From an uncultured virus (IMG/VR IMGVR_UViG_3300042308_001600) (Duplodnaviria > Heunggongvirae > Uroviricota > Caudoviricetes), in the IMG/VR virus record IMGVR_UViG_3300042308_001600, positions 62,001-121,077 of that record: 59,077 nt of DNA; one strand, written 5' to 3'. This document shows, one piece after another, positions 1,220 to 30,147 of this stretch (its first letter is position 1; each line of letters begins with the position of its first letter). The notes under the pieces were generated by a model that worked only from the letters and a program-made list of their open reading frames with translations, searched no databases and was not told the DNA's origin. A program made the translations under genes and the position numbers.

Positions 1220-1870
1220 CTATGCGCCTCCTGCGTACGGCGGGAGAGACGGAGCTGGTATTGTTCCTGAAAGTAGCGAACTTGGAGACGGAGCCCCCAT
1301 CAGAATTTTTTTGAACATAGCTGACGATAACATTGCTTGCTCGTTCTCATTCGGTACTCCGCCAAACCTAGCGGGTGTACGGAGCAGATTCGTCTGTAAT
1401 GGATCTGCCTTGCTCTGTGCTCCCCAGTTAGTTGGGCGTGTCGGGTAACCCGCGCCCTCCTCCATTTCCCTGACGGAACCGGTGATGGGTTTAGTTGGGG
1501 TTAGCCCTGCTGCTCCTGCAAGCTGACTGGAGTGATCTGCAAACGCTGGTATCGATGATTCATCGGAACCACCCTGCCCACGCCAGTGTTCCAAGCCCGC
1601 ACCAACCCCAGCACCACCAAGACCCCCGAGCAGCATACCTTTCAGGATCGAGGGAGAACCGTTCTCCTCCTCATCCCGTTTGCTCTGCATGAGCTTACGG
1701 ACACCCTGAATGGCGCCACCCCCGAGCGCCCCGGCTCCACCACCAAGGATGGCGGCCAGGATGCGGGGGTTAATTGGCGCTTGGGCTGGTTCACCCGCAG
1801 CGCGCTTGATGATGAAAGTCGTGAGATTGATACGGAATGGCAGGTTCATAGGAATGAGTAAATGTTTCAC
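1220..1870 (-). CDS. glycine-zipper protein, putative virion/ejection protein
   Basis: Two GxxxG-rich hydrophobic helices (ILGGGAGALGGG, LLGGLGGAGVGAG); IKRAA near the N-terminus; alternative start at 1849. Confidence 0.6.
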   Translation of the reverse strand: MKHLLIPMNLPFRINLTTFIIKRAAGEPAQAPINPRILAAILGGGAGALGGGAIQGVRKLMQSKRDEEENGSPSILKGMLLGGLGGAGVGAGLEHWRGQGGSDESSIPAFADHSSQLAGAAGLTPTKPITGSVREMEEGAGYPTRPTNWGAQSKADPLQTNLLRTPARFGGVPNENEQAMLSSAMFKKILMGAPSPSSLLSGTIPAPSLPPYAGGA

Positions 1871-3771
1871 AGCGGCCGAGTACCGGCAAGAACTTCCTCG
1901 AAGTCCTTGCGAGTGATCCCAAGCAGCTGGCGAATGGTGTCCTCTGCGGCTGGGTTCGGCATAGGCTCCGGGAGGTCAATGTAACCCCAGTTCTTGTTGG
2001 CCACCAATGCCGGGTCGAAGAGACCGCCTGCCTTGGGAGCCAAGGTGCGGAAGTCAATGGTCTCACCGGAATGTACTTTCAGGGGTTTGAATTGCTCGAG
2101 CTGTTTGTCAGTCAGGAGACCCAACCGAAGTTTGCCGCCGCCCATTTCGCGCGCGTGCATGCCAGCACCGTTCAGAAGTGCCCTGAACTTTTGGAACACA
2201 AAAGGAGAGCCTGGAGCTTTGGGGGTTTGCCCTGACCTGAAGGTGCGCCAGAAATCATCGTTCTGCTGCCCCGTCAATGTGCTGGACTCCCGGAGGTTGT
2301 TGTACGCGCCGCTGCTGAGCATCACGGTAGTCTCGAGACCTGAGCGACGTTTGGCGCCGCCACCAAGGCCAGACCCCTTCGAAGGTTGTCCGTCCTGGTC
2401 ATACCCCCCTTGCCCACGTGCGTCGTATTTGTGCTCTGCGATGTGGTGCAGCTTCAACACGTAGGCATTGCCGGTTGTGATCGGCCTGTCCAGCTTGCGG
2501 TTGTCCTTGGGATCGAACACAGTCTCCTTGTCGGTCATGCCTGCTTCCTTGAGCTTGGCCGCCACAAAGTCTATCCAACTGTCCTCGTTCGGATTGAACG
2601 CCGGGAGCTTCATTGGGGTGCCTGACTTGGCTGCAACTTTTCCAAGAAGGATCTCAAGTAACAGCGAGGGGTTGGCACGCGATGGGAGACCCTGTTGGTT
2701 GAGCAGCATCTCCAGCGGTTCACCCGACGCTGTGCGGAGCATCTCATGCTCGGGGATGACCGCTGAGACGATCCCCTTCTGGCCCGAGCGCAGGACAAGC
2801 TTGTCGCCCTTCTGCATGGGGCGATGACTCTCGACCAGCACCTTCACAGATCCGTCATTCTTGCGCACCACGTCCGTGACGGTACCTGGCACTGCGCTGT
2901 CCCACTGCACAGAGGCATCCGCGCGGAGCTGTCTCGCTACCTTGCCCAAGCGCCCCAGGCTTTGTGACTGGGCTGAATTGAAGTTGCGCGGACGGGTGGC
3001 CAGGATCAGAGGGTCGCCCGGTTGTACAACCTGACCTGGACGCACGATGCCGTGCTCGTCCAGCAGCGTGAGCTGATCTTTGGTGTACATGTCAGGGAAC
3101 AGTGACTTGAAGTGGTCTTGGCCGCTCTTCAGGTTGCCCCCTGAAAAGTCCTTGTCGATGGAATCCAGATGGAGGCTGGTGGCCCGCTTTGCGAACTTGT
3201 CCGAGACCACCATGGCATCATCCATCGAGAACCCCTTGAAGGGAACAACCCCCACACGGGCGTTGAGGCCTAACGCCAGGGAACCCTTCTCGTCTGTGAA
3301 GTTGGAACGGGCCAGCAGGTCCTTGGCTTTGACAGTCTGTCCCTTCGTGACCGTCGGGGTCTGTGTGATTCCGCTGTACCGGTTGAAGGGCATGTTGCGA
3401 TACAGCCCGATCACCTTGGGAGTTCCATCTGCCAGTCGCAGTTTGATTTGTGTGTCCGCCACATCCTCAACCGTGGCGTCCCCGTCAGAGCGGATAGCGC
3501 CGGCCGTACCGCCAAGCATGTCGTCAAATGACGTGTCCGGCGTGTCATCCATGCTGGTCTGGATCCATGGTGCCTCTGGTTTTACCAGTGGTTGTGCCTG
3601 GTTGGCGAAACGGGCACCGTAGAACAACCGGGTAGGTTGGACGGCATTCTGCAGCGGGATCAGCCCGACATTGGGACCGACGAATTGATTGGGAGACATG
3701 AACTCGAAATCGACGTCCTCTTCAGGGCGCCGATCCAATTCATACTGGGCGTTAACGACTTCACGATGCAT
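1867..3771 (-). CDS. rpoB: phage RNA polymerase: beta C-terminal part fused to a beta-prime N-terminal fragment
   Basis: RpoB motifs GFSMDDAMVVS, GDKLVLRSGQKG, LNQQGLPSR, YVLKLHH, GQPSKG; then RpoC-like ETIDFRTLAPKAGGLFD and WGYIDLPEPMPNP; likely ATG at 3771 (ORF track extends to 3960). Confidence 0.92.
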   Translation of the reverse strand: MHREVVNAQYELDRRPEEDVDFEFMSPNQFVGPNVGLIPLQNAVQPTRLFYGARFANQAQPLVKPEAPWIQTSMDDTPDTSFDDMLGGTAGAIRSDGDATVEDVADTQIKLRLADGTPKVIGLYRNMPFNRYSGITQTPTVTKGQTVKAKDLLARSNFTDEKGSLALGLNARVGVVPFKGFSMDDAMVVSDKFAKRATSLHLDSIDKDFSGGNLKSGQDHFKSLFPDMYTKDQLTLLDEHGIVRPGQVVQPGDPLILATRPRNFNSAQSQSLGRLGKVARQLRADASVQWDSAVPGTVTDVVRKNDGSVKVLVESHRPMQKGDKLVLRSGQKGIVSAVIPEHEMLRTASGEPLEMLLNQQGLPSRANPSLLLEILLGKVAAKSGTPMKLPAFNPNEDSWIDFVAAKLKEAGMTDKETVFDPKDNRKLDRPITTGNAYVLKLHHIAEHKYDARGQGGYDQDGQPSKGSGLGGGAKRRSGLETTVMLSSGAYNNLRESSTLTGQQNDDFWRTFRSGQTPKAPGSPFVFQKFRALLNGAGMHAREMGGGKLRLGLLTDKQLEQFKPLKVHSGETIDFRTLAPKAGGLFDPALVANKNWGYIDLPEPMPNPAAEDTIRQLLGITRKDFEEVLAGTRPL

Positions 3772-4201
3772 GGAAAAGCGCGTTGCGGAGATTGCTGGCC
3801 TCAGGTCCCCAACGTGGGTCCTGCAAGGTTTCATACAGCGGTAGCGCGTAGGGGGCGGCACCGGTGCCCTGCACGGCGGCCATGAGACCAGCCTGAGACT
3901 GCGCTGCAAGCTGTTGCGCTGCCTCCACGTTGCCGAGCGCCTTTGCGTAGAACTCACCACCCACCCCGTAACTGCCGTTCATGCGCCCTATGAGATTCGG
4001 CAGGCGGTATGTTGAAGGTTCAAACGTCTCAGCACGCCCTGCGGGCATTAGAGCCGCCCGACCAAAGCGCAGCAGCGCATCCGCCATTGGGCTGGATGTC
4101 AGACTCGGCAGGGCCTCCCCACTTGGGGTGCCGTAGTTGAGTCTGATGTGCGCGCTCGGGCTTGTGTTGGCGGCGGCGTTGATGAGAGGTGCTTTGAACA
4201 T
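3761..4201 (-). CDS. hypothetical protein
   Basis: 146 aa ORF tiling between the RNAP gene and 4214..5662. Confidence 0.6.
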   Translation of the reverse strand: MFKAPLINAAANTSPSAHIRLNYGTPSGEALPSLTSSPMADALLRFGRAALMPAGRAETFEPSTYRLPNLIGRMNGSYGVGGEFYAKALGNVEAAQQLAAQSQAGLMAAVQGTGAAPYALPLYETLQDPRWGPEASNLRNALFHAS

Positions 4202-4213
4202 GAGGCGTGGACT

Positions 4214-5662
4214 TTAGGTTCCGAGTGCTTCCCGCAAGAATCCCGTCATGGAGCGCACAGGCAGCCCTTGCGCCCCTACTGTGGAGGGCAGCGTCTGTGG
4301 TTGTCCACCTGCTACCATGGAGCCTGTGCGATTCTTCAGGTAGGTGCCGAGCTGTCCAAGCAGCCCTTGCAACCATTCACCTGAGCCGCTGGGGGTGGTC
4401 AATGGTTGTCCTGCCTTGGCCGCCGCCTCGCGCAGCGCCTGCTGTTGGGCAGTCGCCTGTGCGACAGTCGCGTCATGCCCCATGTTGGCCATCGGCCCCT
4501 CCATGAGCGGAAACGAGAGGCCCAGCAGTTTCGCAATTGGTTTCGCCGCCAGTCCGACCCCTTTCCAGGGAGTAACCGTGAAAGCCGTGTTAGCAGTATC
4601 CAGTGCACCCGAACCAAGTTGACCAAGCATCGCCTTGGTTTTAGTCAGCTTGTCGGTCGGGGTATTCCAGATTCCCTCCGGGGTTGCATGAGCTGCCGAG
4701 AGTTCCTTGTAGGCATCGGGCGCTGCTGCGTAAGCCTGGCCAGTGTGGGAGGCTGCCCCTAGTCCTGTTGCACCTACAGCCAAGCCGGCGTTGCCCAGTA
4801 CACGTGGTAAGTTGAGCGCTTTATTGCCCATCCACTGCGTCGCGTTAGCTACGCCGTTGAGTAAGCTGGTAGGCATCAACGCTCCCACCGTACCTGGTTT
4901 GGCCGAGTTCGAAAAGGGTTGCCACGGTGTCTCTCCGAAAGGCGTGACCGGTTTGTCACCTGCAAACCAGTTAAGACCCGGAACTGTACTGATACCGGCA
5001 CGTGCAATCGGCAGGGCCTTGCTGGGCTCCTTAATCCCATTCCAGAGCGTGTCCATGACACCTGGCACAGGCGCCGCAGGATCACCGTAGTGCCCAGCCT
5101 GCAGGGCTTTGTAATTGATTCCGTTGTCGCGGTACAGATCCGCAATATGCGGTCCCTTCAGCACGCCTGTTGGTGCGGCCCGCCCGGTTGGCCAGGGTTT
5201 GCCAGAGCGGGTCAGGGTGGGCGCACTCGGAGCATCTGCCGCTGTTTTGAGACCATAGAGCCCATGGTTCAACCGGGACATGCTTGCCTGCTGGGTGAGC
5301 TTGCTGATGTTCCCCATGGTCGTCGAGAAGCGCTTACCGAAATAACCAGCGCCCATGTTGTTTGCCGCGTTGGACATGGCCTTGGTGTGCAGGATCTGTT
5401 GCTGCTGCAGCTTCTGCTGATGGCCTGCTTCCAAGGCCTTCATCTGCGCCTGCTGGGCTGTTTGCTCAGCCTTGACCTGTCCCTGCTCGGCCTTGGTCTG
5501 TTCAGGGGAGACTGCGTTCGGATCCTCAGCCGCATGGTTCGGGATCACGATTGGCTTGATGCCGTTGGTTTGATCCGCAGGCCGCACAGGACCCGGGGCG
5601 CTCTTGGGTGAGACGCCGTCCTGCAGGAGTGCGAGCTTGATGAAGGGCGAAAGAGTGGTCAT
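4214..5662 (-). CDS. Ala/Gly/Gln-rich putative virion protein
   Basis: 482 aa; Q-rich segment, Gly-rich hydrophobic stretches, IKLA and LKTAA motifs. Confidence 0.6.
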   Translation of the reverse strand: MTTLSPFIKLALLQDGVSPKSAPGPVRPADQTNGIKPIVIPNHAAEDPNAVSPEQTKAEQGQVKAEQTAQQAQMKALEAGHQQKLQQQQILHTKAMSNAANNMGAGYFGKRFSTTMGNISKLTQQASMSRLNHGLYGLKTAADAPSAPTLTRSGKPWPTGRAAPTGVLKGPHIADLYRDNGINYKALQAGHYGDPAAPVPGVMDTLWNGIKEPSKALPIARAGISTVPGLNWFAGDKPVTPFGETPWQPFSNSAKPGTVGALMPTSLLNGVANATQWMGNKALNLPRVLGNAGLAVGATGLGAASHTGQAYAAAPDAYKELSAAHATPEGIWNTPTDKLTKTKAMLGQLGSGALDTANTAFTVTPWKGVGLAAKPIAKLLGLSFPLMEGPMANMGHDATVAQATAQQQALREAAAKAGQPLTTPSGSGEWLQGLLGQLGTYLKNRTGSMVAGGQPQTLPSTVGAQGLPVRSMTGFLREALGT

Positions 5663-7464
5663 ACGTTCACAGCGTTATTACGGTAGCTTGCCAACAACTC
5701 AGCTCGACGCTGGCGCTCTTCCGGGGAGAGGATCACGCGTTTGGTACGCTCGTTAGTTTCGTGCCGGAGGCGACCACGAACATCGCGGCGAATCTTGCCC
5801 ACCAGAGCATCCGAGAGTGCCATCTCCTGCACAGGCAGATCAAGCTGCGTTTCCGCGTCACCCTTGTTCTTGGTTGGTAGTGTCACCCGGATACGTCCAG
5901 ACTCAGGGCGCTCCGCACGGTCCGCGACACCCTGCAGGGCATTGATGCCCTTGAGGCCCAGATAACCGACACCACCCAGCAGCCCGGCGCCCAGAAGCCC
6001 ACCCGCGATGGCTGTTCCCGGATTCTTGTCTATGTACTGAGAAGCCTGATCAAAGATGCTCGGGGACGTGACGTTGACAGAGGTATTGGCGGGAGCCGTG
6101 ACGTTGACGTTGGTCCCACGCTCCTTGGACAAGGCGGCCACCAAATCAGAACCCGTGTTCATGTTACGCCGCATTAAATCCTTCGCGAACACACCGGGAA
6201 TAGCTACCGCCATACCTGTTGCTCCGCCCATCATCTTTAACCTCTTGGCGGCGTCGATGGTCAATTGTACGGGCCGCTTTGCCGCTTCGGCCTTCGCGAG
6301 TGCGGAAACACCAGGCAACCGTCCCGTACCTTTGCCAATCCCGAACATGGTAGTGTTCAGCAAACCGTCCGCCAGGCGTTCCTTCCAATGTTCAGTCGTG
6401 AGAAACCGTCCACTGGGGGCGTTGTATAACGCGTCCATGCCGACCGCACCTGCTGTTGGTGCCGCCATGTATTTGGTGCCTGTCCACAACGCCTTGGCAA
6501 CCTCGGGCCAACCGGCTTGCTTCACCGCCGCCGTCTTGGACGTGGCTTTCAAGACGGCCAGAAGTTGGGCCGTCCGGAGGGCTTCCTCGGAGGCACCGGT
6601 CTGACTCTCGCGGTTGAGTTCCTGCTGCAGCACCGGGTCAGCCAGCATGTCGCGACGGGTCCCACCTGGGGGTAGGCGGCGCATCATCTCAATGATCCCC
6701 TCGTTGTTGGCCTTGCGGCTGTGGTAACCGAGCAACCCAGACAGCAACGCCGCACCGCCGCCGGCCATTGCCGTGTGTTCTGGCTTGGCTCCTAGGAAGT
6801 GGGCACCTGCGCCGACTGCTCCACCACCAACCAAGGCTGTCATCAAGGATGCCTTGGCAGGGGAGGACATGTCCACAGCAGGACTGTCAGCCATAGACCT
6901 GAAAAGTTTTGGGAACCATTGACTCTGTCCTTCCTCGACGTTGGCCTGTTCCTCTGGGTTCAGCACAGCACGGCGGGGTGCCAGCGGCATGTACTGCTGG
7001 AGAGAAACACCCCCGTAGGAGCCTGGAACGTAGGAAGGTCGGCGTGCCATTTTGGTCAACATAGAGGGAAGCGGTTGGGAGCGCAAGCGTGCCATCTTAT
7101 GCTGCACAGGCACCCCGAGCTTGTCGGCGAGCTTCAGGCTCGGCTCATTACCGGGCACAATGTAGGCCCGGACATCCTGGACATCCGCCGGCTTGTGCTC
7201 CTGGAACATTTCCTGCAGGGCACGCTTCGCAAGCCCCTGGCGCCGGAACTCCGGCAGGAGTCCCACAGCGTAGTAGCCAGCCTTCTTGCCTGTCTGATCG
7301 TTGCGGAACTGCCAGCCTGTGAAACCAGCCAGCTTGCGCGTCGCAGGGTCTCGGATCGCGAACGCCTCGTCGAGCTGGGCGCGTTTGAGGCCGTGAGGCC
7401 ACCAGGTGGGGTTGTCCTGGTAGATACTGTTTAGGAGCTGGTCGAATTCCGCACGGGTTGCCAT
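5659..7464 (-). CDS. GNAT acetyltransferase domain fused to a glycine-zipper region
   Basis: GNAT motif A VGLLPEFRRQGLAK and motif B GNEPSLKLADKLG in the first ~120 aa; several GxxxG helices downstream. Confidence 0.75.
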   Translation of the reverse strand: MATRAEFDQLLNSIYQDNPTWWPHGLKRAQLDEAFAIRDPATRKLAGFTGWQFRNDQTGKKAGYYAVGLLPEFRRQGLAKRALQEMFQEHKPADVQDVRAYIVPGNEPSLKLADKLGVPVQHKMARLRSQPLPSMLTKMARRPSYVPGSYGGVSLQQYMPLAPRRAVLNPEEQANVEEGQSQWFPKLFRSMADSPAVDMSSPAKASLMTALVGGGAVGAGAHFLGAKPEHTAMAGGGAALLSGLLGYHSRKANNEGIIEMMRRLPPGGTRRDMLADPVLQQELNRESQTGASEEALRTAQLLAVLKATSKTAAVKQAGWPEVAKALWTGTKYMAAPTAGAVGMDALYNAPSGRFLTTEHWKERLADGLLNTTMFGIGKGTGRLPGVSALAKAEAAKRPVQLTIDAAKRLKMMGGATGMAVAIPGVFAKDLMRRNMNTGSDLVAALSKERGTNVNVTAPANTSVNVTSPSIFDQASQYIDKNPGTAIAGGLLGAGLLGGVGYLGLKGINALQGVADRAERPESGRIRVTLPTKNKGDAETQLDLPVQEMALSDALVGKIRRDVRGRLRHETNERTKRVILSPEERQRRAELLASYRNNAVNV

Positions 7465-7470
7465 AGGAGA

Positions 7471-7499
7471 AGTTTAACCACCGGTCCCTCCATTGTCAC
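7471..7499 (-). promoter_or_regulatory. sigma70-like promoter, probably giving a leaderless transcript
   Basis: GTGACA-17 nt-TAAACT with 6 nt before the ATG at 7464. Confidence 0.45.
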
Positions 7500-7589
7500 G
7501 GGTAAGATTTACGCTTTGCGCCATTCACCTTCCCACAACCGGAGCGCGTACCTCAGGTATTGCCCGAACCATCTGCGAACTTGGGACGC

Positions 7590-8150
7590 TCAGTCATGCT
7601 GCTGCGCCGCGATGTATTTCTCAAACCATGTCCGGTACCGTTTGGCTTCCATCGGTCGGATGGTTTCCCGCTGCGCGCAAGACTCGCTCATGATCAAGTC
7701 TTCAACTTCCTCATGGGGTAGCTGCAGCACATGCCCCAATTCATGGAGCAGCACCGCCACAATCGAGATACTACCAACGGCAAGCCCGTTTACCCTGCGC
7801 CACCAGATACCGAACCGGGTTACCGGCAGGGGTTTCCAGTTCAACCTGGGGTTGTCCTTGAGCTCAATAACCCAACGCGGTGCCAGCTTGCCTGGGAACT
7901 GTGTACAGGTTGCCCAGGTCTCTGTTGTCGTTGGCCGTGGTTTGAACTGGTGTCCAAACGTGATCAACACCAAAGGGTCCGTGCAGCCTTTCACCCAGGG
8001 CTGAAACACCACAAGCCCTGCAAGTACACGATTCCATTCGGTGACTGCCTGCTCGACGGAGCGTTGCATGGCCTCGCGATCGATCTTGCCAAACAACAAG
8101 TCTGCGGTGCTGTAAGCGATGATGGTGGGTGTCATTGGGGTATAGTCCAT
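7590..8150 (-). CDS. matrixin-like (M10/metzincin) zinc metalloprotease
   Basis: VLLHELGHVLQLPH followed by a Met-turn (LIMS); upstream AVTEWN is typical of matrixins. Confidence 0.75.
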   Translation of the reverse strand: MDYTPMTPTIIAYSTADLLFGKIDREAMQRSVEQAVTEWNRVLAGLVVFQPWVKGCTDPLVLITFGHQFKPRPTTTETWATCTQFPGKLAPRWVIELKDNPRLNWKPLPVTRFGIWWRRVNGLAVGSISIVAVLLHELGHVLQLPHEEVEDLIMSESCAQRETIRPMEAKRYRTWFEKYIAAQQHD

Positions 8151-9434: not shown

Positions 9435-9437
9435 CCG

Positions 9438-18574: not shown

Positions 18575-19129
18575 TTAAGCGGTTGGTACGATTGAACTAA
18601 ACTTTCCAGGGACAAGTTTGAAAGACGCCCCGTAACGCTTTAACGGCCAGTTGGCCCGTAGCCAACGCTCCGCTTGTTCATCCGGTGTGTACACCTTTGC
18701 GGCGGTGGCGCGTTTGCCTGCCTTCATTGCTGGTTCTTCAACCACGACAGTCTCGAGTACCTCCACGTTGCGCAGCATGAGCGTCGCGTCTGGCTGCAAC
18801 TGCAGATTGGGGTTCTCGGGTGGCATACCCGCAGCAGATTTCTGCTGCTCCTCAAAGGCGGCCTGCCGCTGCTGTAACGTGCCCAGCAATCGCGTCGCGG
18901 CAGCCTGCATGACCGCCGGGGCTGGACACTCAGCCTTCTGCTCTGTTTCCTCCGCGACTCGCTGTAACATGGCGATAGTCTGGTTGATCAGAGACGGATA
19001 GAAATGCGCGGGATGCACCTGCAGCCGATAATTCGCAACTTTGCCGTCGCTACTCCGATAGTTGGTCAACCATACCTGCCCAAGACTTTCTTGGGCGCGT
19101 GAGATAATATCAGCAATGCTGGGTGTCAT
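18575..19129 (-). CDS. hypothetical protein
   Basis: 184 aa tiling ORF. Confidence 0.65.
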   Translation of the reverse strand: MTPSIADIISRAQESLGQVWLTNYRSSDGKVANYRLQVHPAHFYPSLINQTIAMLQRVAEETEQKAECPAPAVMQAAATRLLGTLQQRQAAFEEQQKSAAGMPPENPNLQLQPDATLMLRNVEVLETVVVEEPAMKAGKRATAAKVYTPDEQAERWLRANWPLKRYGASFKLVPGKFSSIVPTA

Positions 19130-20625
19130 TTAACCAGGACGTTGTCTACAATATCGTCTTTGATGTTCTGCGGTCTGTTGACCTGCTGTGTGGAATCACT
19201 GAACTGGGAGCCCGTGGCTGCCGTCTGTAGCGTACCCGTGTGCATTTGCGACGCGTCATCTTTACCGATAGTTGCTGCGCCACCCTGTTGGGCAAGCATA
19301 GCACGCAGTTGTTCCATCGGTGTTTGTGGGGCAGCCTGCGCTGCCGCCGCCTTGATGACTTCTTCGCCGGCCAGTGCCGCGATATGCAGATCCAGGGCGG
19401 AAGCCGTACAACTAATCAGCTGCGACGCCGTCTTGTTGAACTCCGCCAGCTGTGCGCCTTGCTTGCGCCAGTGCGGTGCAGCATTAGCGAAAACACCGGC
19501 AGACATGAGCATCAGAGCAGGCCCAATACCAGACTGCACCGCGACCCGCACAGCTGCGCACTTGACCAAAGGATCCGACGGCAACTCAAGGTTGGCTCCT
19601 TGGGCCAGATCCAGCATGGCGTCCGAACCATATTTGAACTGATGACGTTCCAGGTCATCGAGCATCCCGTGTCCCACTGCAGCGATGACGGCTTTGACAC
19701 CGGCATCGGCTGCAAGCTTTTCAAACTGGAGAGCCACATGTACCAGGGCGTCGGATGCTTTCTTGAAAGCCTCCGTGTCTTCCTCCTCCTCTGCTGCCGG
19801 GTCTTCCCCAAACCCGACACGCACTCGGTTCACCGGGGCCTGCATCTTGGGTTTGAGCGGGAATTGCTGGTCCAGAAAACGATCCGTCAGCAAGCCCGAC
19901 GTCAGGGCTGTCAGTAACGGTATGCCGCCAATCGCAAGAGCGGCGATCTGCGGCATACTCAAGCCTCGCCCGTCTGCCGCCTCCTTTGTACCTTCAGCTT
20001 CGGCCTGCAGCGCCGCCATGTAGCGCGACTGCTGTTCCGCAAGCCTGTCTTTCACGTCCCGCTCGCGCCAGCCTTGGTAGGCCTTGCGTGTCAGCTGCAA
20101 CCCGCCCAGCGCAGCCAGGGGGAACGCTGCACCACCCAACATGTAGTCCCACACGCTCAGTGGTTGTTTTCCTGCCGCGGGCATTGGTGACTGCACGTAC
20201 TGCTCAGCCGGTGCCATTTTCTCATTGAACCACTCCCCGGCGGGGGCCGCCAGGTTCATGAGTTGAGAAAAACCTGAGGCCTGCTTGCGAAGTCTCGCCG
20301 GTAGTTGCAGCTCCAAGTCAGAATCGGCTGCCTCGTTTTTGTCCTCCACGATGGCGTTCCGCTGCCGAAGCAACGCGGTCAGAAGTCCTACCCCGCCGCC
20401 GGCGACCAGACCTCCAAGCAGCATGCGGGCAAGGAACCCTGGGTTGACATGAGTGTCGTGGGTTCCCACAGGGGCGGCAGGGGCGGGAGGGGCGGGAGCC
20501 GCTGCTGGGGCTGGCATCGCTGCTGGGGCTGGCATCCCTGCTGGGGCTGGCATCCCTGCGGTGGGGAACATAGCAGCGTCCGCCTGCTTGACGTTAGGGT
20601 TTGGAATTGGTGTCGTCTGAGTCAT
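19126..20625 (-). CDS. putative virion protein with glycine-zipper helices and many K-x-A motifs
   Basis: Likely ATG at 20625; three hydrophobic Gly-rich helices; KQAD, KQAS, KEAA, KKAS, KLAA, KCAA, KTAS, KAAA. Confidence 0.65.
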   Translation of the reverse strand: MTQTTPIPNPNVKQADAAMFPTAGMPAPAGMPAPAAMPAPAAAPAPPAPAAPVGTHDTHVNPGFLARMLLGGLVAGGGVGLLTALLRQRNAIVEDKNEAADSDLELQLPARLRKQASGFSQLMNLAAPAGEWFNEKMAPAEQYVQSPMPAAGKQPLSVWDYMLGGAAFPLAALGGLQLTRKAYQGWRERDVKDRLAEQQSRYMAALQAEAEGTKEAADGRGLSMPQIAALAIGGIPLLTALTSGLLTDRFLDQQFPLKPKMQAPVNRVRVGFGEDPAAEEEEDTEAFKKASDALVHVALQFEKLAADAGVKAVIAAVGHGMLDDLERHQFKYGSDAMLDLAQGANLELPSDPLVKCAAVRVAVQSGIGPALMLMSAGVFANAAPHWRKQGAQLAEFNKTASQLISCTASALDLHIAALAGEEVIKAAAAQAAPQTPMEQLRAMLAQQGGAATIGKDDASQMHTGTLQTAATGSQFSDSTQQVNRPQNIKDDIVDNVLVK

Positions 20626-20995
20626 GAGGATCGAGCTTTCTGTAAAAGATATCGCGCAACATAATGTGGCATATCCATTTGTCACCGACAACGACAGGCT
20701 CGCTGTGTCGCATGATTTCAATACAAGCACCGTCCCCGGTGGGATTATGCGACTGCTCGTACAACTCGTTCAGCGCCCCCAGGTCATCAGCATCCAACAG
20801 ATTCAGGATCTTGTGTGTTATGGGCCCGTACTTGACGTGCTGCTGGTTTTTTACAAAATGATCCTTGAGCTGTGGCTTGCCCTTAACCCACTTCTCTGGT
20901 CGACGTACTGTGTCGACAACTTCCACCGCTGCCTGGCCCAGGACAGGCACTGCGGCAGGGAGGGCTATACCGGGAGATAGGTCAGATGGAGACAT
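20594..20995 (-). CDS. hypothetical protein
   Basis: Likely ATG at 20995. Confidence 0.6.
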   Translation of the reverse strand: MSPSDLSPGIALPAAVPVLGQAAVEVVDTVRRPEKWVKGKPQLKDHFVKNQQHVKYGPITHKILNLLDADDLGALNELYEQSHNPTGDGACIEIMRHSEPVVVGDKWICHIMLRDIFYRKLDPHDSDDTNSKP

Positions 20996-22479: not shown

Positions 22480-22489
22480 AATACCGCAA

Positions 22490-22517
22490 AATGTAGATCA
22501 AGCCCCTGCTGATGCAA
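22490..22517 (-). promoter_or_regulatory. possible sigma70-like promoter
   Basis: TTGCAT-16 nt-TACATT shortly upstream of the ATG at 22479. Confidence 0.3.
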
Positions 22518-24306
22518 GCTGCGCCACTTGCGCTCCGCCTTGACTACGTGCAGCCGCACGTAGCTCCGTCATTTTCTGACGCACCAGAGCGTGCATGTCG
22601 GGATCCGTGGACCGGATGGCAGCGAGCTGTTTAGCCCGATCCCCGTCATCTTGGATCTGCAACAAGCGCTGGGACTCCGCGAGGGCCTGCTCGGCTTTCT
22701 GGGAAGGTGTGTAGGCCACCCCTCCCGGTGCGCCACCTGCGCCGCCGCCGCCTCCTCCGATTGACCCTGCGCCTTCCTCCAAGGCAGCGTCCGCCTGAAT
22801 CTTGTCCACCTGCCGTTTGATTTCGACGTTCTCGCGAGCTCGCTCCGCCGCTGCTTCGACCGGATCGTCCACACCGTAAGGACGGAACGCGATGCGGCGT
22901 GGAAACTCTCCACCGGCCGCCAATTGCAGGTACACCTGCCGGGATTCGATGTCGTCGAGGATACGCGGACTGGCGGCCTTGACCTGCATCTGTTCCCGCC
23001 CCATGAAATCCAGGGCAGTGCGCACGACCCACTTGAGGTGCTTGTTGAAGCTCCAAGGCAAATGCTGCCAGGTATTCTCAAACAACCGCAAGGCTGTCGG
23101 CACCTGCTGCCAAGCCATGGAACCGTTGTAGAGTTCGGCCGGAAAACCCTGGGCGTTTAGCATCGCGTTGGTCTGCCACTCCATGTTCTCCTTGGGTGTC
23201 AGCTGCTTGCCTGAGGCCCCGACTTCCGCAAAGCCCATCTGGAAGGGCATGGCGTGAATCGAAAACGGATCCTTGCGCCGGTCTCCAATCATCTGCTGCA
23301 GCATCTGCTGCCAGACCTGCATGGAGCCCTGGTTCGCGTACGCGTCGAGTGACCCGCTGGCGCCGGCCTGTGGGAAGAACACACGGAACGGTAACATATA
23401 GTCCAACCCAATGGCTTCGTCGATTCGACGGTAGACAGCCATCTGATGGATGTTCGGGAAGTTGGCCAGAATCTCAGGCATACCCCAGCCGGAGTCGCTG
23501 ATGCCGGAGATGCACGGAGCACGCAGGTGAAACACCTCCCCCTCGTTGTAGAGAAAATCACTGTCCGCGGCGAGCGCCCGCAGCTGCGCAATCGGAGTCT
23601 CATTGACCTGCCACAGGTCCCCGCGGCGGATAGCGGCTTTGAAGAACGGCTGGAAACGCTCAGCCACCTGGTAGCGCCCGGATCTGTCCGCGTGCTGGAG
23701 GTACGCGTAAGCCGGATCGATCCGGCGCAACGCCAGCCGGTTCAGGTCACGTGCAACACGGTCAATGAAATTGACCTGAATAGTGCGGCGCTGCCGCTGG
23801 CTGCGGTGCTGACGTGTAGGGTCAGCAATCTCGTACTTGAGCGTCTCAAACTTGTACTTGGCATCCGGGAACTCCGACACAGACATTTCGGAGTGTCCAT
23901 TGTCCGTGGGAATCAGCAGGAACCTGTTGAACGGCCTGTGCATCCGTCCAAACGCGTTGCCGAAAGCCGACCAGTCCATCCCCAGTTCAGCCAGATGTAA
24001 CCAGAAGGCGATACCGTCGCGCATCCACTCCCGTAATTCATCCTGTTCCGCCTTGTCCCCGGCCTTGGATTTGGCGCCGATGAAATCCAGATCCGTGAGG
24101 AAATACGAGACAACACGCTGACTGGCCCGCGCATACTCAGGCGTGCGGATGTACAGGAAACGACAAATTTCAAAAAGTGCTGTCAGGTTCTCCGGGACGA
24201 AGGACCAGCTTGGCAGCATGAAAGGATCTCCAAACTTGGAGATGCTCGACGACAAGAACCCGCTGGTTCCCGTGTTAGACAGTGAGTTTTGATGCGACTC
24301 GAACAC
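22498..24306 (-). CDS. probable portal protein
   Basis: 602 aa; portal-like elements (DWSAFGNAF, EVFHLRAP..GWGMP), helical C-terminus, structural-gene neighbourhood. Confidence 0.55.
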   Translation of the reverse strand: MFESHQNSLSNTGTSGFLSSSISKFGDPFMLPSWSFVPENLTALFEICRFLYIRTPEYARASQRVVSYFLTDLDFIGAKSKAGDKAEQDELREWMRDGIAFWLHLAELGMDWSAFGNAFGRMHRPFNRFLLIPTDNGHSEMSVSEFPDAKYKFETLKYEIADPTRQHRSQRQRRTIQVNFIDRVARDLNRLALRRIDPAYAYLQHADRSGRYQVAERFQPFFKAAIRRGDLWQVNETPIAQLRALAADSDFLYNEGEVFHLRAPCISGISDSGWGMPEILANFPNIHQMAVYRRIDEAIGLDYMLPFRVFFPQAGASGSLDAYANQGSMQVWQQMLQQMIGDRRKDPFSIHAMPFQMGFAEVGASGKQLTPKENMEWQTNAMLNAQGFPAELYNGSMAWQQVPTALRLFENTWQHLPWSFNKHLKWVVRTALDFMGREQMQVKAASPRILDDIESRQVYLQLAAGGEFPRRIAFRPYGVDDPVEAAAERARENVEIKRQVDKIQADAALEEGAGSIGGGGGGAGGAPGGVAYTPSQKAEQALAESQRLLQIQDDGDRAKQLAAIRSTDPDMHALVRQKMTELRAAARSQGGAQVAQLASAGA

Positions 24307-24366
24307 GGGAGTGGGAAGTTGTTTTGGAGGGTTTGATTGCCGCCTGCTTAGGCATCAGTTCAACCA

Positions 24367-24406
24367 GCACATCAACATCAACCACGTGAGGTTGGGGTTG
24401 ATGTGC
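24367..24406. other. intergenic hairpin
   Basis: GCACATCAAC...GTTGATGTGC 10-bp arms plus an inner stem, upstream of the portal gene. Confidence 0.5.
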
Positions 24407-24413
24407 CGCTGTT

Positions 24414-25013
24414 TTATTCTGGACGGGTGGTATGCCAGTTTTGATCATCATGCTCCACCAGCATAAAACTGATCAGCGTACCGTGCAACCCCAGCGTGAC
24501 ACTGGCACCGAGGTACATGGCGTCGTAAACCTGACCGGACTGTCGCGTCACTTTAATAACCTGACTGGCCATATCGTGCAGCTTCAACTGCACTTGGTTG
24601 GCGCCCCAGCCCAGTAGAGTTAACGTTGCGGCGTCCTCACTCACATACACGAACACGCTGAATTGCAGGGTCAGGGAATCGAAGGTGAGCGTGATCCGCT
24701 CCTGTGAGGAGAGAAGGAGCTGTGCAAGTTCACCCGCAGCCGTGGTGTTGGCTTCCACTGGCGTGTTGTCTGTCGGTTGCCTTCCACGTTTACGTTTGAC
24801 CGGCGCGATGGAAACTGGTGTGACGGCGTCGTCAGGGTCCTGTACAGAGCTGCTGGATTTGCCAGTAAAAAAGTTCTCCGCCGCACGCGCGCGTCTGCTC
24901 AGTTCTGCGGGCGCGGGGTATTTGTCCGCCTGCTCCAAGAGAGCTTGTTCGGCCAGGTCATTCGAAGCGACATCAGCATTGGGAGGAACCATCACCGCTA
25001 AGATGAAGCGCAC
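24414..25013 (-). CDS. hypothetical protein
   Basis: 199 aa ORF. Confidence 0.6.
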   Translation of the reverse strand: MRFILAVMVPPNADVASNDLAEQALLEQADKYPAPAELSRRARAAENFFTGKSSSSVQDPDDAVTPVSIAPVKRKRGRQPTDNTPVEANTTAAGELAQLLLSSQERITLTFDSLTLQFSVFVYVSEDAATLTLLGWGANQVQLKLHDMASQVIKVTRQSGQVYDAMYLGASVTLGLHGTLISFMLVEHDDQNWHTTRPE

Positions 25014-25578
25014 GCATCTTGCTTTGCAAGCGTGAAATGCTCATCTGCGATTTCTTCTTGTGCCGCCGCACAGGTGCGCTGATTAAACGCGCAATACGGG
25101 CGCACTCATTCCTGAAGCCTGTCGAGTACTGACCAGCCAACACCAAAGCAGGACCGTCAAATACTTCACACCAGCGGGACATGTGTACAACCAGGTGTAA
25201 AGTCCGCACCCTGGCAAACCACACGGCGTTGGGTTGTGTGTCTGTTGTGATCGTCGCCGGTTCTTCCAGGATGAGGGAGAACATATTGGCGAGATCCCAG
25301 ACGATCCCTGCGTTGACCGGCAGCTCCGGCAAACCTTCCTCCGGGGTCACCATGCCCGCCGCCCTAAACTCACCCCAGCTGAATCCTAGAAGGCGTAACA
25401 CTTGTACCGCACGCCGCCTTCCTGGTCGGTGCCTCATTTTGCACCAGTTGTAAAACACAGAACGTGGTACCCCGAGAGATACCACGTTCCGTTTCTGTAA
25501 CTGAAGTTGCTGCTGAACAAACCACACGAACCGCTCATGGGTCGCGCGGGATAACCTGGCATCAGGCGGCTTGCCCAT
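24973..25578 (-). CDS. putative XRE-like HTH protein
   Basis: SLGVPRSVFYNWCK..RP..AVQVLRLLG resembles an XRE HTH. Confidence 0.5.
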   Translation of the reverse strand: MGKPPDARLSRATHERFVWFVQQQLQLQKRNVVSLGVPRSVFYNWCKMRHRPGRRRAVQVLRLLGFSWGEFRAAGMVTPEEGLPELPVNAGIVWDLANMFSLILEEPATITTDTQPNAVWFARVRTLHLVVHMSRWCEVFDGPALVLAGQYSTGFRNECARIARLISAPVRRHKKKSQMSISRLQSKMRALHLSGDGSSQC

Positions 25579-25777
25579 TGAGGCGAGACGTCAGCGCGTC
25601 GATGAAGAGACAGGTGCCCAGGACAGCCTTTTCGGCCTGTTCCTGCAGACGGGGGGCGGCACTGGCGACCTTCTCCAGGAGCTTGCTGGAATCCTGGTGA
25701 CGGGAGCGTGCTTCAGCGGAGACGCCAAGCAAGAACATCTGCGAGGCGCGTTTAACGTAGGCGGAGGAGGGAATCAT
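25562..25777 (-). CDS. small protein with K-x-A motifs
   Basis: VKRAS and EKVAS; likely ATG at 25777. Confidence 0.55.
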   Translation of the reverse strand: MIPSSAYVKRASQMFLLGVSAEARSRHQDSSKLLEKVASAAPRLQEQAEKAVLGTCLFIDALTSRLNGQAA

Positions 25778-25821
25778 ATACGGGGTATGGGTGGGTGGGG
25801 TTGTTGTGGAATGCAGGGAAA

Positions 25822-27402
25822 TCAATCAGCACCGGCGGCGAAGGCCTGGACGATGTCACCAGCGACAAAGTCCACACTGCCGTTGTTCTGGATCAGGATG
25901 ATGGCCGAGCCCTTGACATTCACGGTGCCGTCATGCAGCACAGCGGTGCCGGAACGGGTGATGCGGACCGCGAACTTGGTGGACAGATTTGTGAGGCCTG
26001 TGTCGAGTTCAATGTAACCACGGCTGACATCAGCCGCGGTGACCGTGCGAGACACATAGACGGGAACGTCTGTCGCGATGGTATCCAGCACGTCAGTGCC
26101 ACCTGCGAGAGTCGCAGCTCCCCAGGAGAGTGTCGCCGCCACCTCAGTGGTTGGAATGCTGTTGCCATCGGTGCCGGGAACGCGTGCCGTGACCGCAAAG
26201 GCGTGGGAAGTGACTGACGTGGCGGCTGTCACGTGCGGATGTGGCAGTGCACAGACGTAATTCGTGTCCGGGGTGCCGGAGTGGTTGATGGCACGGATCA
26301 GATTCAGGAGGCTTCCATCGGCGTCTGCGCCGATGTCCACATCACCTTCTTCGGCTGGGGTTGCCATGAAAGTGTAAACCTTGTCGACAATCGTGACCGT
26401 GTCGCCTTCTGTGACATTGGTGTTGTTGCTCGTGAGCGTGCCGGTCGCATATGCGCCGGCTTTGAATTCCAAGGACACCAGCGGCGTAGCCAGCGGCAGG
26501 TCATTAGAACCTGTCACGCTGCTGGCATCTCCAAAGGCAGTCCAATCGGCGACGTCATCCCCGTCGATGATCACAACCGCATGCGTGTCCGCGCCGCCAG
26601 TGAGTGTCGCTGCGCCGAAGGAAAGATTCGCGCCGGTTTCCGTGGTGGCGATGGCGTTGCCCGCCGAACCGGCGGTGGAGGCCGTGACCGTGATTGTATC
26701 ACCCGCGCCGGCAGCTGCCGTAACGGTTGTGTGCGCGACGGTTGCCGAGCCGTACTTTGTACCGCTGCCAGCTCCACCAGTGATAGCGGCGATCAGGTTG
26801 TCCAACGCGTCGCTGGCTGCCACCTCCACCAGAATCTCATTGGCCGTGACGCCTTGGATCGCCGTCTTGAAAGTGTAAACAGTGCCACCGATCGTGACCG
26901 TGTCGTTGTTGGCAGGCGCAGCGGCGGCGGTCAGCGTACCGGAGGCCGCAATAGCCGCGGGGGTGGCCAGCTCAGTGGAGCTGCGTACTGTTGCGCCCGT
27001 GGCGGCGAAGTCGGTGCTGGCTGCAAGTTCCACCAAGAAGGCGGCGAGCAGGGCGGCGGTGGTTGCGCCGTCAATGTTGGAGTTGCCGAACGTGAAGGGA
27101 ACCCCACCAAGCGTGACCTTGTTGAGCGTGGCGCCATTTGGAATGACCCCGCCGGCACCGATCTGTACCAGAAGTGTTTTGCGTGCTGTGCTTGGACGCA
27201 CCGAAGAGATGCCGTGGATGGCGTCCGATTTGACGACCTGCATGTAGCCAGCGGCGACATGGCTGCGGACAGCCGCCAGGACCTCTTTGTCGAGCGCGAA
27301 CTCTGCTGGAATCGTGAAGTCTTCCCGGTTCGCAAGGTTCCGGACATATTTCTGACCAAAACCGAAGATACCAGTGCGAAGGGGGCGGAGGATGAGTGAC
27401 AT
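25822..27402 (-). CDS. virion structural protein (Thr/Ala/Gly-rich, duplicated beta domain)
   Basis: Two copies of A(S/T)GTLT..DTVTI..VYTF..NLI.AI..VTA..GN.I.TTE....LS(F/W)GAATL.GG, typical of phage tail/decoration proteins. Confidence 0.7.
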   Translation of the reverse strand: MSLILRPLRTGIFGFGQKYVRNLANREDFTIPAEFALDKEVLAAVRSHVAAGYMQVVKSDAIHGISSVRPSTARKTLLVQIGAGGVIPNGATLNKVTLGGVPFTFGNSNIDGATTAALLAAFLVELAASTDFAATGATVRSSTELATPAAIAASGTLTAAAAPANNDTVTIGGTVYTFKTAIQGVTANEILVEVAASDALDNLIAAITGGAGSGTKYGSATVAHTTVTAAAGAGDTITVTASTAGSAGNAIATTETGANLSFGAATLTGGADTHAVVIIDGDDVADWTAFGDASSVTGSNDLPLATPLVSLEFKAGAYATGTLTSNNTNVTEGDTVTIVDKVYTFMATPAEEGDVDIGADADGSLLNLIRAINHSGTPDTNYVCALPHPHVTAATSVTSHAFAVTARVPGTDGNSIPTTEVAATLSWGAATLAGGTDVLDTIATDVPVYVSRTVTAADVSRGYIELDTGLTNLSTKFAVRITRSGTAVLHDGTVNVKGSAIILIQNNGSVDFVAGDIVQAFAAGAD

Positions 27403-27447
27403 AGTACTTAAAGGAACGTTGAGAGTTGAAGCCTGTCAAAAAGAAAT

Positions 27448-28098
27448 TCACCGGGGCAGGCCAATCACCTTACCGCGCAGATCTTCCGGGGACAACCAGT
27501 GAATGTCACCCGTGCGGGGATTTCTGAACTTTTGGTACAGCCGCCCATTGCTCCCGATCTTGACGCCGTTGGCCAACCTGGTGTCGACACCGGCCGACCC
27601 TGATTCAGGACCTTCAATAGGGGACAAGAAACCAAAGATCGAGGGGTGAATTGCCTGCATCGAATCTGTGATCATGTCAGCGCTGCTGACCCCGCCTGGA
27701 CCCAATAACGTGACACGCCTTGCCTGGTTTGCGACGTCGAGCGGGTTGATTTCCTCCAAAGGAGAAGCGAGCTGACTGGCTGTGATGTGCTTCGTCACGA
27801 GATCGCTCAATGCTCCAGGCATAAACCCTTTTAAGGATCGGTGCCGGGCCGCGTAGCCCAGTGTTTTGCGCAAGGAGCCGGTTGCGTCCAACCGTACACG
27901 CTCAGACAACAAGTCGGGTGTGTTCATGATGCGCTTGAACTGAATACCATCACGGTGGTCCTGCTCGGCCAAGCCGCGATTGATCGCCAGCGCTTTTTGC
28001 GTTGCAGCCAGTACACCGTCGACACCAACTGGTACATAGTGGTCGTCGGAAGCCGAAGGAATATCAGCATTATCAAGTACGTCGAGATCAGTCGTCAT
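27448..28098 (-). CDS. rpoB: phage RNA polymerase beta, middle fragment (fork/rifampicin region)
   Basis: SQLASPLEEINPL..RRVTLLGPGG and IHPSIFGFLSPIEGPESGSAG align with E. coli RpoB ~420-615. Confidence 0.9.
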   Translation of the reverse strand: MTTDLDVLDNADIPSASDDHYVPVGVDGVLAATQKALAINRGLAEQDHRDGIQFKRIMNTPDLLSERVRLDATGSLRKTLGYAARHRSLKGFMPGALSDLVTKHITASQLASPLEEINPLDVANQARRVTLLGPGGVSSADMITDSMQAIHPSIFGFLSPIEGPESGSAGVDTRLANGVKIGSNGRLYQKFRNPRTGDIHWLSPEDLRGKVIGLPR

Positions 28099-28570
28099 CG
28101 TCAGTGTCCTCCGTTCCGTTCAAATCAAAACTTGCCACGCATTCTCCGGTTTCAAGATCCAACACGTCCAGTGTGTCAAAGAACACACGTTGACCGCTCA
28201 GCATGTCCTGCACAGCTTCCAGCGCGTCGTACATGCCGGTGGCCAGCGTGAGGGTGGGAGTGTTGTCGAGATGTTCAGCCCCGCTGGTCATCAAATCTTC
28301 CCAGACCTCCAACACCTCCCCTGTCACGTTGATGACCACAGCGGCTCCTGAAGCTGAAGCCTGTTGCTCCACATCCCCGAGCGTACAGCTGATACGTTCA
28401 GGCAAGCCCGCGCGGAGGGCATCCACATCCACACCTGCCGGAAGCAATGCGAGCAGGATGCCGGGATCCAAGTCGGCATCATGCGGCTTGCACCCAAGCT
28501 TTAACTGCGCGGCAGCCCAGGCTCCGCGATAACGGTCTGGCAGGGGAAGATGCAGAATCAAATAAGACAT
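28088..28570 (-). CDS. hypothetical protein, possibly a degenerate 2H phosphoesterase fold
   Basis: Two spaced P-x-hydrophobic motifs (DPGILLA, TPTLTLA) with 2H-like size and spacing but no His. Confidence 0.4.
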   Translation of the reverse strand: MSYLILHLPLPDRYRGAWAAAQLKLGCKPHDADLDPGILLALLPAGVDVDALRAGLPERISCTLGDVEQQASASGAAVVINVTGEVLEVWEDLMTSGAEHLDNTPTLTLATGMYDALEAVQDMLSGQRVFFDTLDVLDLETGECVASFDLNGTEDTDDDD

Positions 28571-30147
28571 CCAAGTACCTCCATGAAGGGTGTGGCAACC
28601 ACGGTGCAGGCCTGGGCGCTGTTGGCGTACTTGATCTTCAAGTTGTCCCCCGCCTCGAAGACCATCTGGAAGTCTTCCGGGTGACGCGCCATCATGTGCG
28701 CAATTGTCGCCGTTTTGAAGAGGCTGGAAGCTGCCAGCATTGCGTCATTGCCTGCGTCCGGATTATCGGGGCGTGTCAGAAAGATGCTGATCGCCTGCTC
28801 GAGTTCCTCAACTGTGCCCTCAAGAGGTAACGCCGCCTGGCTCTGCTGGTTGATATACCTGGCCAGCGCGATCAAGTCTTGCCGGGTCAAGCTGGCCCTT
28901 TTCGCGGCCCAGTCACCCCAGGCTTGTGCCTTGTGCGCGTCCATGTCCTTGCGGGCAGCCTCCTGTCGCTCCTGTGGTAGGAGGGTCGGCGCATCAATCC
29001 CCCAGTTCCGCAAAGCGTGTCCCCGGCGTGCCGTTGGGTTCTGTACATACTGTGCACCGGCTCGGCGCTTGAAACGCAACCAGCGCTGGATCTGCCTGGC
29101 GTCGTCCTCGGAGCGCCGCCCGCCCGCGTAATTGTCATACCATTCCAACCAGCCCATAGGATCTACGTCCTTGTTAATCCACGCATCCGGCCACTGCTTC
29201 ATGGACGCCAGCTGCGGTCCCGACTTGCCGTAAATGGCGTTCTTGACGTCCGTCAGATCCTCGGGTGTGAAGTCTGGCTTGAAAGCCTTTTCGAGATCCT
29301 CGTAGTCCTTGTCAGTTGTCGCCAACTCACGACCCAAGGCCGCGCGCTTGACGGTGTCTGCCATGGTTGGCAGGTGTTGGTCCCGCACGCTTGCCAGTAT
29401 CTGGGAGCGGTCAAATGCCGCACGTAGCTGTTTGACTTGATCCACTCTGGGGGCATCAGGGAGCTGTTCGCGGGTGGGCACCAGCTTGACGTAAGCCTGT
29501 TGGAACGCCTTGGGGTTGTACTTTTTGGCGTTGCGTTCCCATGTACCATCCCCCCACATACCCTTGATGTGATCGTCCTGGACGCCCATGTCCTTCAGGA
29601 CCGAATATAAATGCACCTCTGACTGTTTCCCAACCTTGAGCTTAAACTGCGCCGTTTCGGGCTCCAGCATGACCCGGTAGCCGGACCCGGATCCGGGCCG
29701 CACGTTGAAATGAACCTCGGTGTTGCCGTTGTTCATGACACGCCCATAGGGACCTGGGACCAACCGCAGCTGACGCACGGCTGTGTAGTTTGAACCGCCG
29801 TGCAGAAACGTACCGCGAGGCGACAACCAGGGAACATTCATGAGCGTCACACGCTGTTCGTCCAGCACGTCGTTGGTCTTGTCGTCGAACAGCTGCAGGG
29901 TCCCGCGCAGCCGGCGCCCCAAAAACTTGTTGTTCAGCAGTGCCTGCTTTTGCTCCTCCGGAGAAAAGTCCTCCGGGCCCTCGTAGGTCGAGTCCTTGAG
30001 CTCCATGCGCACGCCGCCAAAACTGCGCGGAAACGAAGTTTTCACCGCGTCGTGTACCTTGTCGAAAATATGAGTACGCTGTGTCCCGAAATCATCCGGG
30101 TCAAACAGCTCCACACCTTTTGGTTTGAATTCACGCATGCTTACCAA
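28558..30147 (-). CDS. rpoB: phage RNA polymerase beta, N-terminal fragment with extra C-terminal domains
   Basis: EQRVTLMNVPWLSPRGTFLHGGSNYTAVRQLRLVPG resembles E. coli [36 protein letters not shown]; extension contains DPMGWLEWY..GRRSEDDARQIQRW. Confidence 0.85.
   Translation of the reverse strand: MVSMREFKPKGVELFDPDDFGTQRTHIFDKVHDAVKTSFPRSFGGVRMELKDSTYEGPEDFSPEEQKQALLNNKFLGRRLRGTLQLFDDKTNDVLDEQRVTLMNVPWLSPRGTFLHGGSNYTAVRQLRLVPGPYGRVMNNGNTEVHFNVRPGSGSGYRVMLEPETAQFKLKVGKQSEVHLYSVLKDMGVQDDHIKGMWGDGTWERNAKKYNPKAFQQAYVKLVPTREQLPDAPRVDQVKQLRAAFDRSQILASVRDQHLPTMADTVKRAALGRELATTDKDYEDLEKAFKPDFTPEDLTDVKNAIYGKSGPQLASMKQWPDAWINKDVDPMGWLEWYDNYAGGRRSEDDARQIQRWLRFKRRAGAQYVQNPTARRGHALRNWGIDAPTLLPQERQEAARKDMDAHKAQAWGDWAAKRASLTRQDLIALARYINQQSQAALPLEGTVEELEQAISIFLTRPDNPDAGNDAMLAASSLFKTATIAHMMARHPEDFQMVFEAGDNLKIKYANSAQACTVVATPFMEVLGCLI

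Follow-up and report, generated by a model that had tools for sequence, protein, structure and literature searches.

Five genes of an uncultured Arash-like tailed phage predicted to encode a complete RNA polymerase with a beta-beta' chimeric subunit

The RNA polymerases of phages phiKZ and AR9 consist of split subunits encoded by scattered genes and, in the parts of the published accounts covered here, no alpha subunit goes with them (PMC7598289, PMC7824862, PMC5105663). As those parts present them, there is a virion set and a non-virion set, beta' is cut after the catalytic barrel, portions of beta and beta' lie on separate chains, and the genomes are without sigma-70. The mReC phages were chosen by matches to beta and beta' of at least 800 amino acids (Weinheimer and Aylward 2020, PMC7481178); according to the sections consulted they are large uncultured genomes, mostly with one beta and one beta' gene close together, high whole-subunit scores and sequences readily aligned to cellular enzymes. 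For the cultured Salmonella phage Arash, gp206 is called 'beta' and gp216 'beta-prime', with no fusion mentioned in the available passages (PMC10585845). Here a 59,077-nucleotide stretch of an uncultured virus is analysed (the window; bases 62001-121077 of the 121-kb virus record IMGVR_UViG_3300042308_001600, G000, 59% complete), in which a sequence-only reading had seen an RNA polymerase beta subunit split into three collinear genes. These genes (A, B and C) and two others outside the window (D and E) are, judged from their sequences, a DNA-dependent RNA polymerase complete in five genes, one of which joins ends of both usual subunits.

The three open reading frames (ORFs) were found on the minus strand, without internal stops, exactly where the sequence-only reading had placed them. 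For the part of the phage missing from G000, record G001 (200,255 bases, 98% complete) was used. Both represent the same phage: piece C is 100% identical, and of two overlaps compared, one differs at 13 of 7069 bases and the other at none of 6008. The polymerase features are as follows, in window coordinates unless a record is named and with E. coli numbering of the subunits.

29362..30138, minus strand: piece A, polymerase domain, beta N-terminal region; beta 48-221 aligned, continuing to about residue 262
29338..29349, minus strand: KRAA (Lys-x-Ala-Ala), five residues past the polymerase domain of A; proposed prohead-protease site
28558..29337, minus strand: C-terminal extension of A ('passenger'), non-polymerase; second motif, KRAS, at 28891-28902
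27448..28098, minus strand: piece B, beta 417-617, fork loops and rifampicin-pocket region
2134..3771, minus strand: piece C, beta part, beta about 648-1336; catalytic barrel, flap, GDK..R.G.KG and KLHH
1867..2133, minus strand: piece C, beta' part, beta' 19-139; in-frame fusion with the zinc-binding segment (about 64-100) deleted
G000 3110-6241 (L001), minus strand, outside the window: piece D, 1043 residues, beta' about 176-552; NADFDGD and one intein
G001 159844-162834 (L010:7844-10834), outside the window: piece E, 996 residues, beta' about 570-1363; bridge helix and trigger loop

Profile alignments were made against four bacterial RpoB or five bacterial RpoC sequences. Residues 27-192 of A correspond to beta 48-221 (probability 97%, E 3e-11), with about 22% identity to E. 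coli RpoB, and residues 21-213 of B to beta 417-617 (98%, E 5e-14). Residues 18-539 of C fall on beta 648-1336 by BLAST, and Pfam Rpb2_6 matches this piece with E 1e-58. The E. coli coordinates of A (48-221), B (417-617) and C (648-1336) bear out the claim that the beta pieces do not overlap and run from N to C along the strand, and the alignments support a phage polymerase lineage still alignable to bacterial RpoB and RpoC. Two assignments stood only in part. A is the N-terminal piece of beta over about residues 4-262 of its 529, and the remaining 265 or so are non-polymerase; this extension has no NCBIfam match and the whole ORF no Pfam match. C, taken as the C-terminal piece of beta, does contain the C-half to about 1336 but ends in beta' 19-139, which makes it a beta-beta' chimera.

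The active-site residues of C are kept, as had been said: all 48 aligned homologues, taken from among the 120 matches listed, have Lys324 and Lys332 of GDK..R.G.KG and His442 and His443 of KLHH, and we take the corresponding E. coli beta residues to have catalytic roles. At a threshold of E 1e-20, C has 341 homologues, and the fold of its model matches beta chains (Z 33.1, root-mean-square deviation (rmsd) 3.1, 312 aligned). The last 90 or so residues of C (about 547-628) correspond to beta' 19-139 minus the four-cysteine zinc segment (76%, E 2e-5) when a profile of 78 tails is used, and this profile leaves RpoB unmatched. The stretch continues into beta' 286 in 31 fused relatives (98.9%, E 3e-17), where the tail is continuous with piece D. 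The beta' part is predicted with a local confidence (pLDDT) of about 80-90; the fold searches used the whole C model, had their lists taken up by beta chains and do not address the tail.

The beta' gene carrying NADFDGD, which was expected elsewhere in the genome, is piece D; a catalytic beta' is thus encoded. Its order is an extension, beta' 179-270, the intein, and beta' 336-550 with NADFDGD, and the N-terminal extension of about 295 residues holds a phosphatase-like domain, two zinc-ribbon-like stretches and five K-x-A-(A/S) motifs. Alignment places piece E on beta' 574-926 and 1151-1363, which takes in the bridge helix, the trigger loop and the C-terminal clamp. The piece has no large trigger-loop insert; an intein interrupts that loop and is missing from the alleles of 614-617 residues in records G002 and G012. 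Of the features of a two-barrel polymerase, the beta-barrel lysines, the beta' DxDGD, and the bridge helix, trigger loop and clamp are present.

The five genes are scattered over about 110 kb. A search of 13 related records found C in all of them, A and B in 11 each, D in 10 and E in 9, and A-B-C-D-E occur as separate frames, in the same order and on one strand, in all six records at least 90% complete. Depending on the relative, the pieces lie between about 1 kb and more than 50 kb apart. For one pair of close relatives (not the window's own genes), nonsynonymous over synonymous divergence (dN/dS) was 0.004/0.051 for A, 0.009/0.065 for B and 0.007/0.127 for C, that is, 0.06-0.14. The polymerase is real and conserved, and we hold it very likely, on these sequence grounds, to be a working enzyme. 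One set was found in the 98%-complete record, where a very divergent second set could escape detection. A sigma-70-like gene is present in 9 of 9 records, and alpha (PF01000) in 0 of 9, with the control positive in 14 of 14; the enzyme might use the host alpha. The sigma-70-like gene lies in the tail region (L012:11983-12699) and is homologous to Arash gp10. From homologue starts, A likely begins at the ATG at 30138 and not at the TTG at 30147. Five E. coli residues that we take to belong to the rifampicin pocket, Q513, D516, H526, S531 and I572, are replaced in piece B, and because of these five changes the enzyme is predicted to be rifampicin-insensitive.

Comparison with phiKZ and AR9 shows both likeness and difference. 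The scattered split genes and the lack of alpha are common to both, as is, in the accounts covered, the cut of beta' after the catalytic barrel, D ending near beta' 552 and E beginning near 570. The cut between B and C resembles the start of the non-virion beta chains, since superposition of the C model begins at residue 3 with AR9 gp089 and at residue 7 with the phiKZ chain. In contrast to what is described for those phages, one set was found here instead of two, the sigma-70-like gene is present, and piece C carries beta' 19-139. The DNA polymerase here is of family A, unlike that of phiKZ and AR9, and C is 25-27% identical to bacterial RpoB against 17-20% to AR9 and phiKZ in the same structural comparison. 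In a tree with AR9 (phiKZ absent), gp089 aligned over only 286 of 537 columns, on a branch of 1.96 with support 0.86. By analogy the enzyme may resemble the phiKZ-type virion polymerase in its working, but it falls outside that type in number of sets, sigma and chimera.

The mReC genomes share with this one a beta and beta' readily aligned to cellular enzymes and a large uncultured genome. As described in PMC7481178 they differ in mostly having single, neighbouring beta and beta' genes with high whole-subunit scores, whereas both subunits are in pieces here. The 800-residue rule given there would fail in the present case, the largest beta piece being C with 634 residues and D reaching 1043 only through its intein and passengers. 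The Gp23-type capsid (PF07068), an mReC trait, was matched in 0 of 5 records, but the control also matched nowhere. Among cellular enzymes, the end of B lies close to where the archaeal B'' model of the B''/B' split stops (a weak match, E 0.009), D and E map to the cyanobacterial gamma and beta' models with a D/E cut an estimated 10-20 residues upstream, and NCBIfam holds models of fused beta/beta'. We know of no cellular case of the A/B or C/D cuts. The earlier idea that the lineage has its own split points thus stands for A/B and C/D; the B/C cut is similar to the start of the AR9 and phiKZ non-virion beta chains, and the D/E cut lies near the cyanobacterial and phiKZ one. No description of the A/B cut, the C/D cut, the chimeric C, the layout or the motif was found in the literature reached, which mostly left subscription journals uncovered and included some papers in part.

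The best C matches among 50,697 phage records were Arash (OQ632216) and three Vibrio phages, the nearest relatives being Arash gp206/gp216 and Vibrio phages D69, D148 and D181. Arash gp206 (1525 residues) is a single chain in which A lies at residues 28-231, B at 270-468, C at 477-1103 and D at 1142-1524; the counterpart of E is gp216. Homology is collinear across the five pieces (26-35% identity), with the same beta-beta' joint and the same D/E cut; Arash uses two genes (A+B+C+D and E), and the present phage five, with passenger extensions and inteins. Clear matches in the genome were obtained for six of 47 Arash genes tried (gp1, gp10, gp204, gp222, gp226 and gp236), and terminase, capsid, portal, sheath, a protease candidate (gp222) and sigma (gp10) are common to both; the capsid candidate matches gp226 with E 9e-15. 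The portal gene is directly upstream of the fused polymerase gene in Arash, and its homologue here lies between B and C.

22498..24306, minus strand: portal protein homologue (tblastn with Arash gp204, E 9e-36)

The proteome of Arash particles bears on where such an enzyme resides. In Table 2 of PMC10585845, gp206 has 3516 spectra (the highest), gp216 1210 and gp10 467, gp206 being detected with 100% coverage; per residue, by our own arithmetic from these entries, this amounts to 2.3, 2.0 and 2.0, against 1.5 for the portal. Unique peptides in the same source number 128, 40 and 24, most non-structural enzymes having 2-14. By analogy with Arash, the polymerase of the present phage is likely to be packed in the virion.

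The history of the pieces was approached through 242 proteins (120 and 120 from two listings, Arash gp206 and D69 gp261), of which 128 were C only, 78 C+D, 34 A+B+C+D and 2 B+C+D; some may be cut by contig ends and, both searches being length-gated with 7999 candidates scored in each, these counts are not family frequencies. A tree of 55 of 83 aligned sequences (529 columns, rooted on three bacteria, with SH-aLRT values from a fast search) set aside 26 sequences as near-duplicates, along with the incomplete rows for YerA41 and AR9, and one B+C+D protein is labelled in it as fused. PF00562 was not matched in RP13, IME392 or RHph_Y65, and IME392 failed to align. The phage group had a support of 97.5; Arash and D69 branched first, other fused forms next, and every protein without A and B fell in one clade (SH-aLRT 95.2). 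This branching order makes gene fission of a fused form, rather than fusion, quite likely, with the confidence in the direction limited by the long root branch. The tree favours a single departure of A and B and more than one change at C/D. Inserted modules were seen at the A/B or C/D joints of the fused homologues P0211, P0214, P0132, P0138 and P0142, among them a 2H phosphoesterase in P0211 and SET, DUF5661 and 2H domains in P0214. The passenger of A partly resembles, by eye, the C/D linker module of P0138.

Assemblins cut after Ala. The motif K-x-A-(A/S), found at the end of the polymerase domain of A, is 8-fold enriched in the head module (33 observed against 3.9 expected; 215 mechanically chosen ORFs) and 1.3-2.4-fold in other regions, five control motifs being 0.4-1.8-fold in the head module; the Arash head genes gp220, gp223 and gp225 are also rich in it. 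In its strict form it was present in 21 of 38 polymerase boundary windows; for core windows the figure was 6 of 298 and for seamless junctions 0 of 98. The boundary windows are related by descent and not independent, two pairs of them cover a common site, and the linkers were chosen by eye. By boundary it occurred after A in 5/8, before D in 4/6, in the linker after C in 5/9 and in the linker before D in 5/9; a looser form followed A in 7 of 8 non-redundant homologues. The count left out L031, L035, L045, P0134, P0139 and P0141 (near-duplicate or truncated). A 534-residue ORF in the window (19126-20730), of no clear family, has seven such motifs against 0.95 expected and is probably, from its sequence, a processed head or ejection protein.

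L010:17994-19490: prohead protease candidate, Arash gp222 homologue, gp21/assemblin fold

The protease assignment is made on the fold and on an invariant His/Ser pair. The best matches of the model (pLDDT 92) were T4 gp21 (Z 10.5, rmsd 3.0, 128 aligned), with herpes assemblin at Z 9.6 (rmsd 2.7, 114 aligned), and His96 and Ser147 are conserved in every one of 102 sequences. Neither Pfam nor PDB gave a sequence match, and Foldseek found nothing at E 0.001. The motif flanks the candidate itself. Its family has 2641 representatives at E 0.001 or better, many of which carry a large insertion beside the invariant serine, probably an intein. The database record of AR9 g078, which annotates a proteolysed protein of which only the polymerase domain was found in virions, provides a precedent for trimming. 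Removal of the non-polymerase extensions at the motif by a head protease appears reasonably probable on this sequence evidence.

The explanation that brings these elements together, and which we consider probable in its full form, is that an Arash-like tailed phage of about 200 kb has a single, complete two-barrel RNA polymerase with A-E as its subunit genes. The N-terminal (A) and middle (B) portions of beta, the beta C-half with the beta' N-terminus (C), D and E would assemble without alpha and use the phage's own sigma-70-like protein; the enzyme would be packed into the head, where the protease would trim the extensions at Lys-x-Ala-(Ala/Ser), and would begin early transcription after injection. 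Historically, rpoB and rpoC may have fused, the beta' zinc domain been lost and E split off, giving the state seen in Arash; A and B would then have separated once, and the C/D joint would have been broken, or remade, on several occasions, often via a linker flanked by the motif. Confidence decreases from packaging to trimming to the route of fission, and the protease-cut linker as the road to the C/D split is nearly evenly balanced, leaning slightly to the negative.

Several results pull the other way. Against E. coli RpoC alone the tail of C ranked top of 504 sequences, but with a non-significant E of 0.11, and its beta' assignment, taken on its own, is of moderate strength (76%). The motif precedes B in only 2 of 6 windows, and it also occurs at one site within the conserved core of C and three within that of E, so that its presence is insufficient for a cut; Arash gp206 has no strict motif at its internal junctions, and in that branch cutting would be unnecessary. 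In the tree the C-only and linker-bearing C+D forms intermingle in the clade lacking A and B, the root sits on a branch of 1.5 substitutions per site, and the fused metagenomic forms are unsupported as a clade (6). The Arash preparation contained 116 proteins including replication enzymes, and its authors allow for co-purification (PMC10585845). Activity, assembly, packaging and cleavage are, for this phage, predictions from its genes.

The replication genes among which A, B and C are set (DNA polymerase A, helicases), the single polymerase set, which may serve late genes, and the unclean Arash proteome would all suit a real but non-virion enzyme of middle or late transcription, whose motifs would be turnover sites or would come from neighbouring head genes and whose extensions would stay on. 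We find this unlikely: in the Arash data as tabulated, the spectra per residue of gp206, gp216 and gp10 exceed the portal and their unique peptides outnumber those of most non-structural enzymes, and the motif lies at domain boundaries, not in cores, although virion and non-virion roles could both hold. As for the direction of change, the relevant passages of Iyer et al. (PMC7824862) argue for split genes first and later fusion in phiKZ-type enzymes, and the same history here, with the Arash chain formed late, would be in keeping with the long outgroup branch, the weak basal support and the C+D linker forms placed among C-only forms, which may be re-fusions. The five genes nevertheless keep the rpoB-rpoC order in 6 of 6 complete records, the beta-beta' joint within C requires an earlier fusion, and fused forms hold the two deepest branches with seamless junctions, which leaves the split-first history improbable.

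That the pieces are rejoined into subunits of normal size by RNA or protein splicing might be thought of in view of the inteins in D and E, mobile splicing elements being common in the genome. These inteins lie within single frames and have intein-free counterparts, no intein family was found on A, B or C and no Rfam match in the window, and the spacing between pieces varies among relatives; splicing is highly improbable. Decay of a captured host rpoB, to which the roughly 22% identity of A to E. coli RpoB could be attributed, is scarcely credible beside the intact frames, the invariant catalytic residues, the many C homologues, the low dN/dS in relatives and the conserved layout; no intact rpoC was found in the 98%-complete record, and C matches only its own gene there.

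The five-gene polymerase extends a series that begins with the two-gene form, with mapped cuts, and bears on the origin of split phage polymerases, by fission or as unfused relics. Its bacterial-like core is minimal: alpha is not recognisable, the beta' zinc domain and the trigger-loop insert are missing, and the partner is sigma-70-like. Arash gp206 can be re-read as a beta-beta' fusion, which makes predictions testable now in a cultured phage, and searches requiring long rpoB and rpoC would overlook the lineage. More tentatively, and with the balance somewhat against it, the family might be a widespread and essentially undescribed class of virion RNA polymerase, alpha-less, without the beta' zinc domain, driven by a sigma-70-like protein and built around a beta-beta' chimera, in which the fission sites would be pre-existing head-protease cuts and the linkers cassettes carrying unrelated enzymes into the head.

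A search of k-mers in 44 intergenic stretches gave nothing solid as a promoter motif, and 15 aligned upstream regions, several with references from the wrong side of minus-strand loci, shared none. The hexamer TTAGCT stands directly upstream of piece A (window 30149-30154, minus strand) and of three other gene starts, so that 4 of its 20 sites lie near a start where 0.9 would be expected; the hexamer was picked post hoc and was not seen in relatives. Between A and B there is one further gene, with nothing linking it to the enzyme.

28088..28570, minus strand: 160-residue ORF between A and B; no family match

Other tailed-phage genes are present, including terminase, DNA polymerase A, helicases and an NAD-dependent ligase. 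The large terminase subunit (L007:16122-19271) bears an intein and lies on the strand opposite to most genes. A single 1141-residue ORF (window 39194-42619) combines DNA polymerase A, uracil-DNA-glycosylase-like and 3'-5' exonuclease domains. A 601-residue ORF (window 5659-7464), 1.9 kb upstream of piece C, has an N-terminal GNAT acetyltransferase domain, and a 901-residue protein (L001:12021-14726) contains an inorganic-pyrophosphatase-like domain known in phage minor head/DarB-like proteins.

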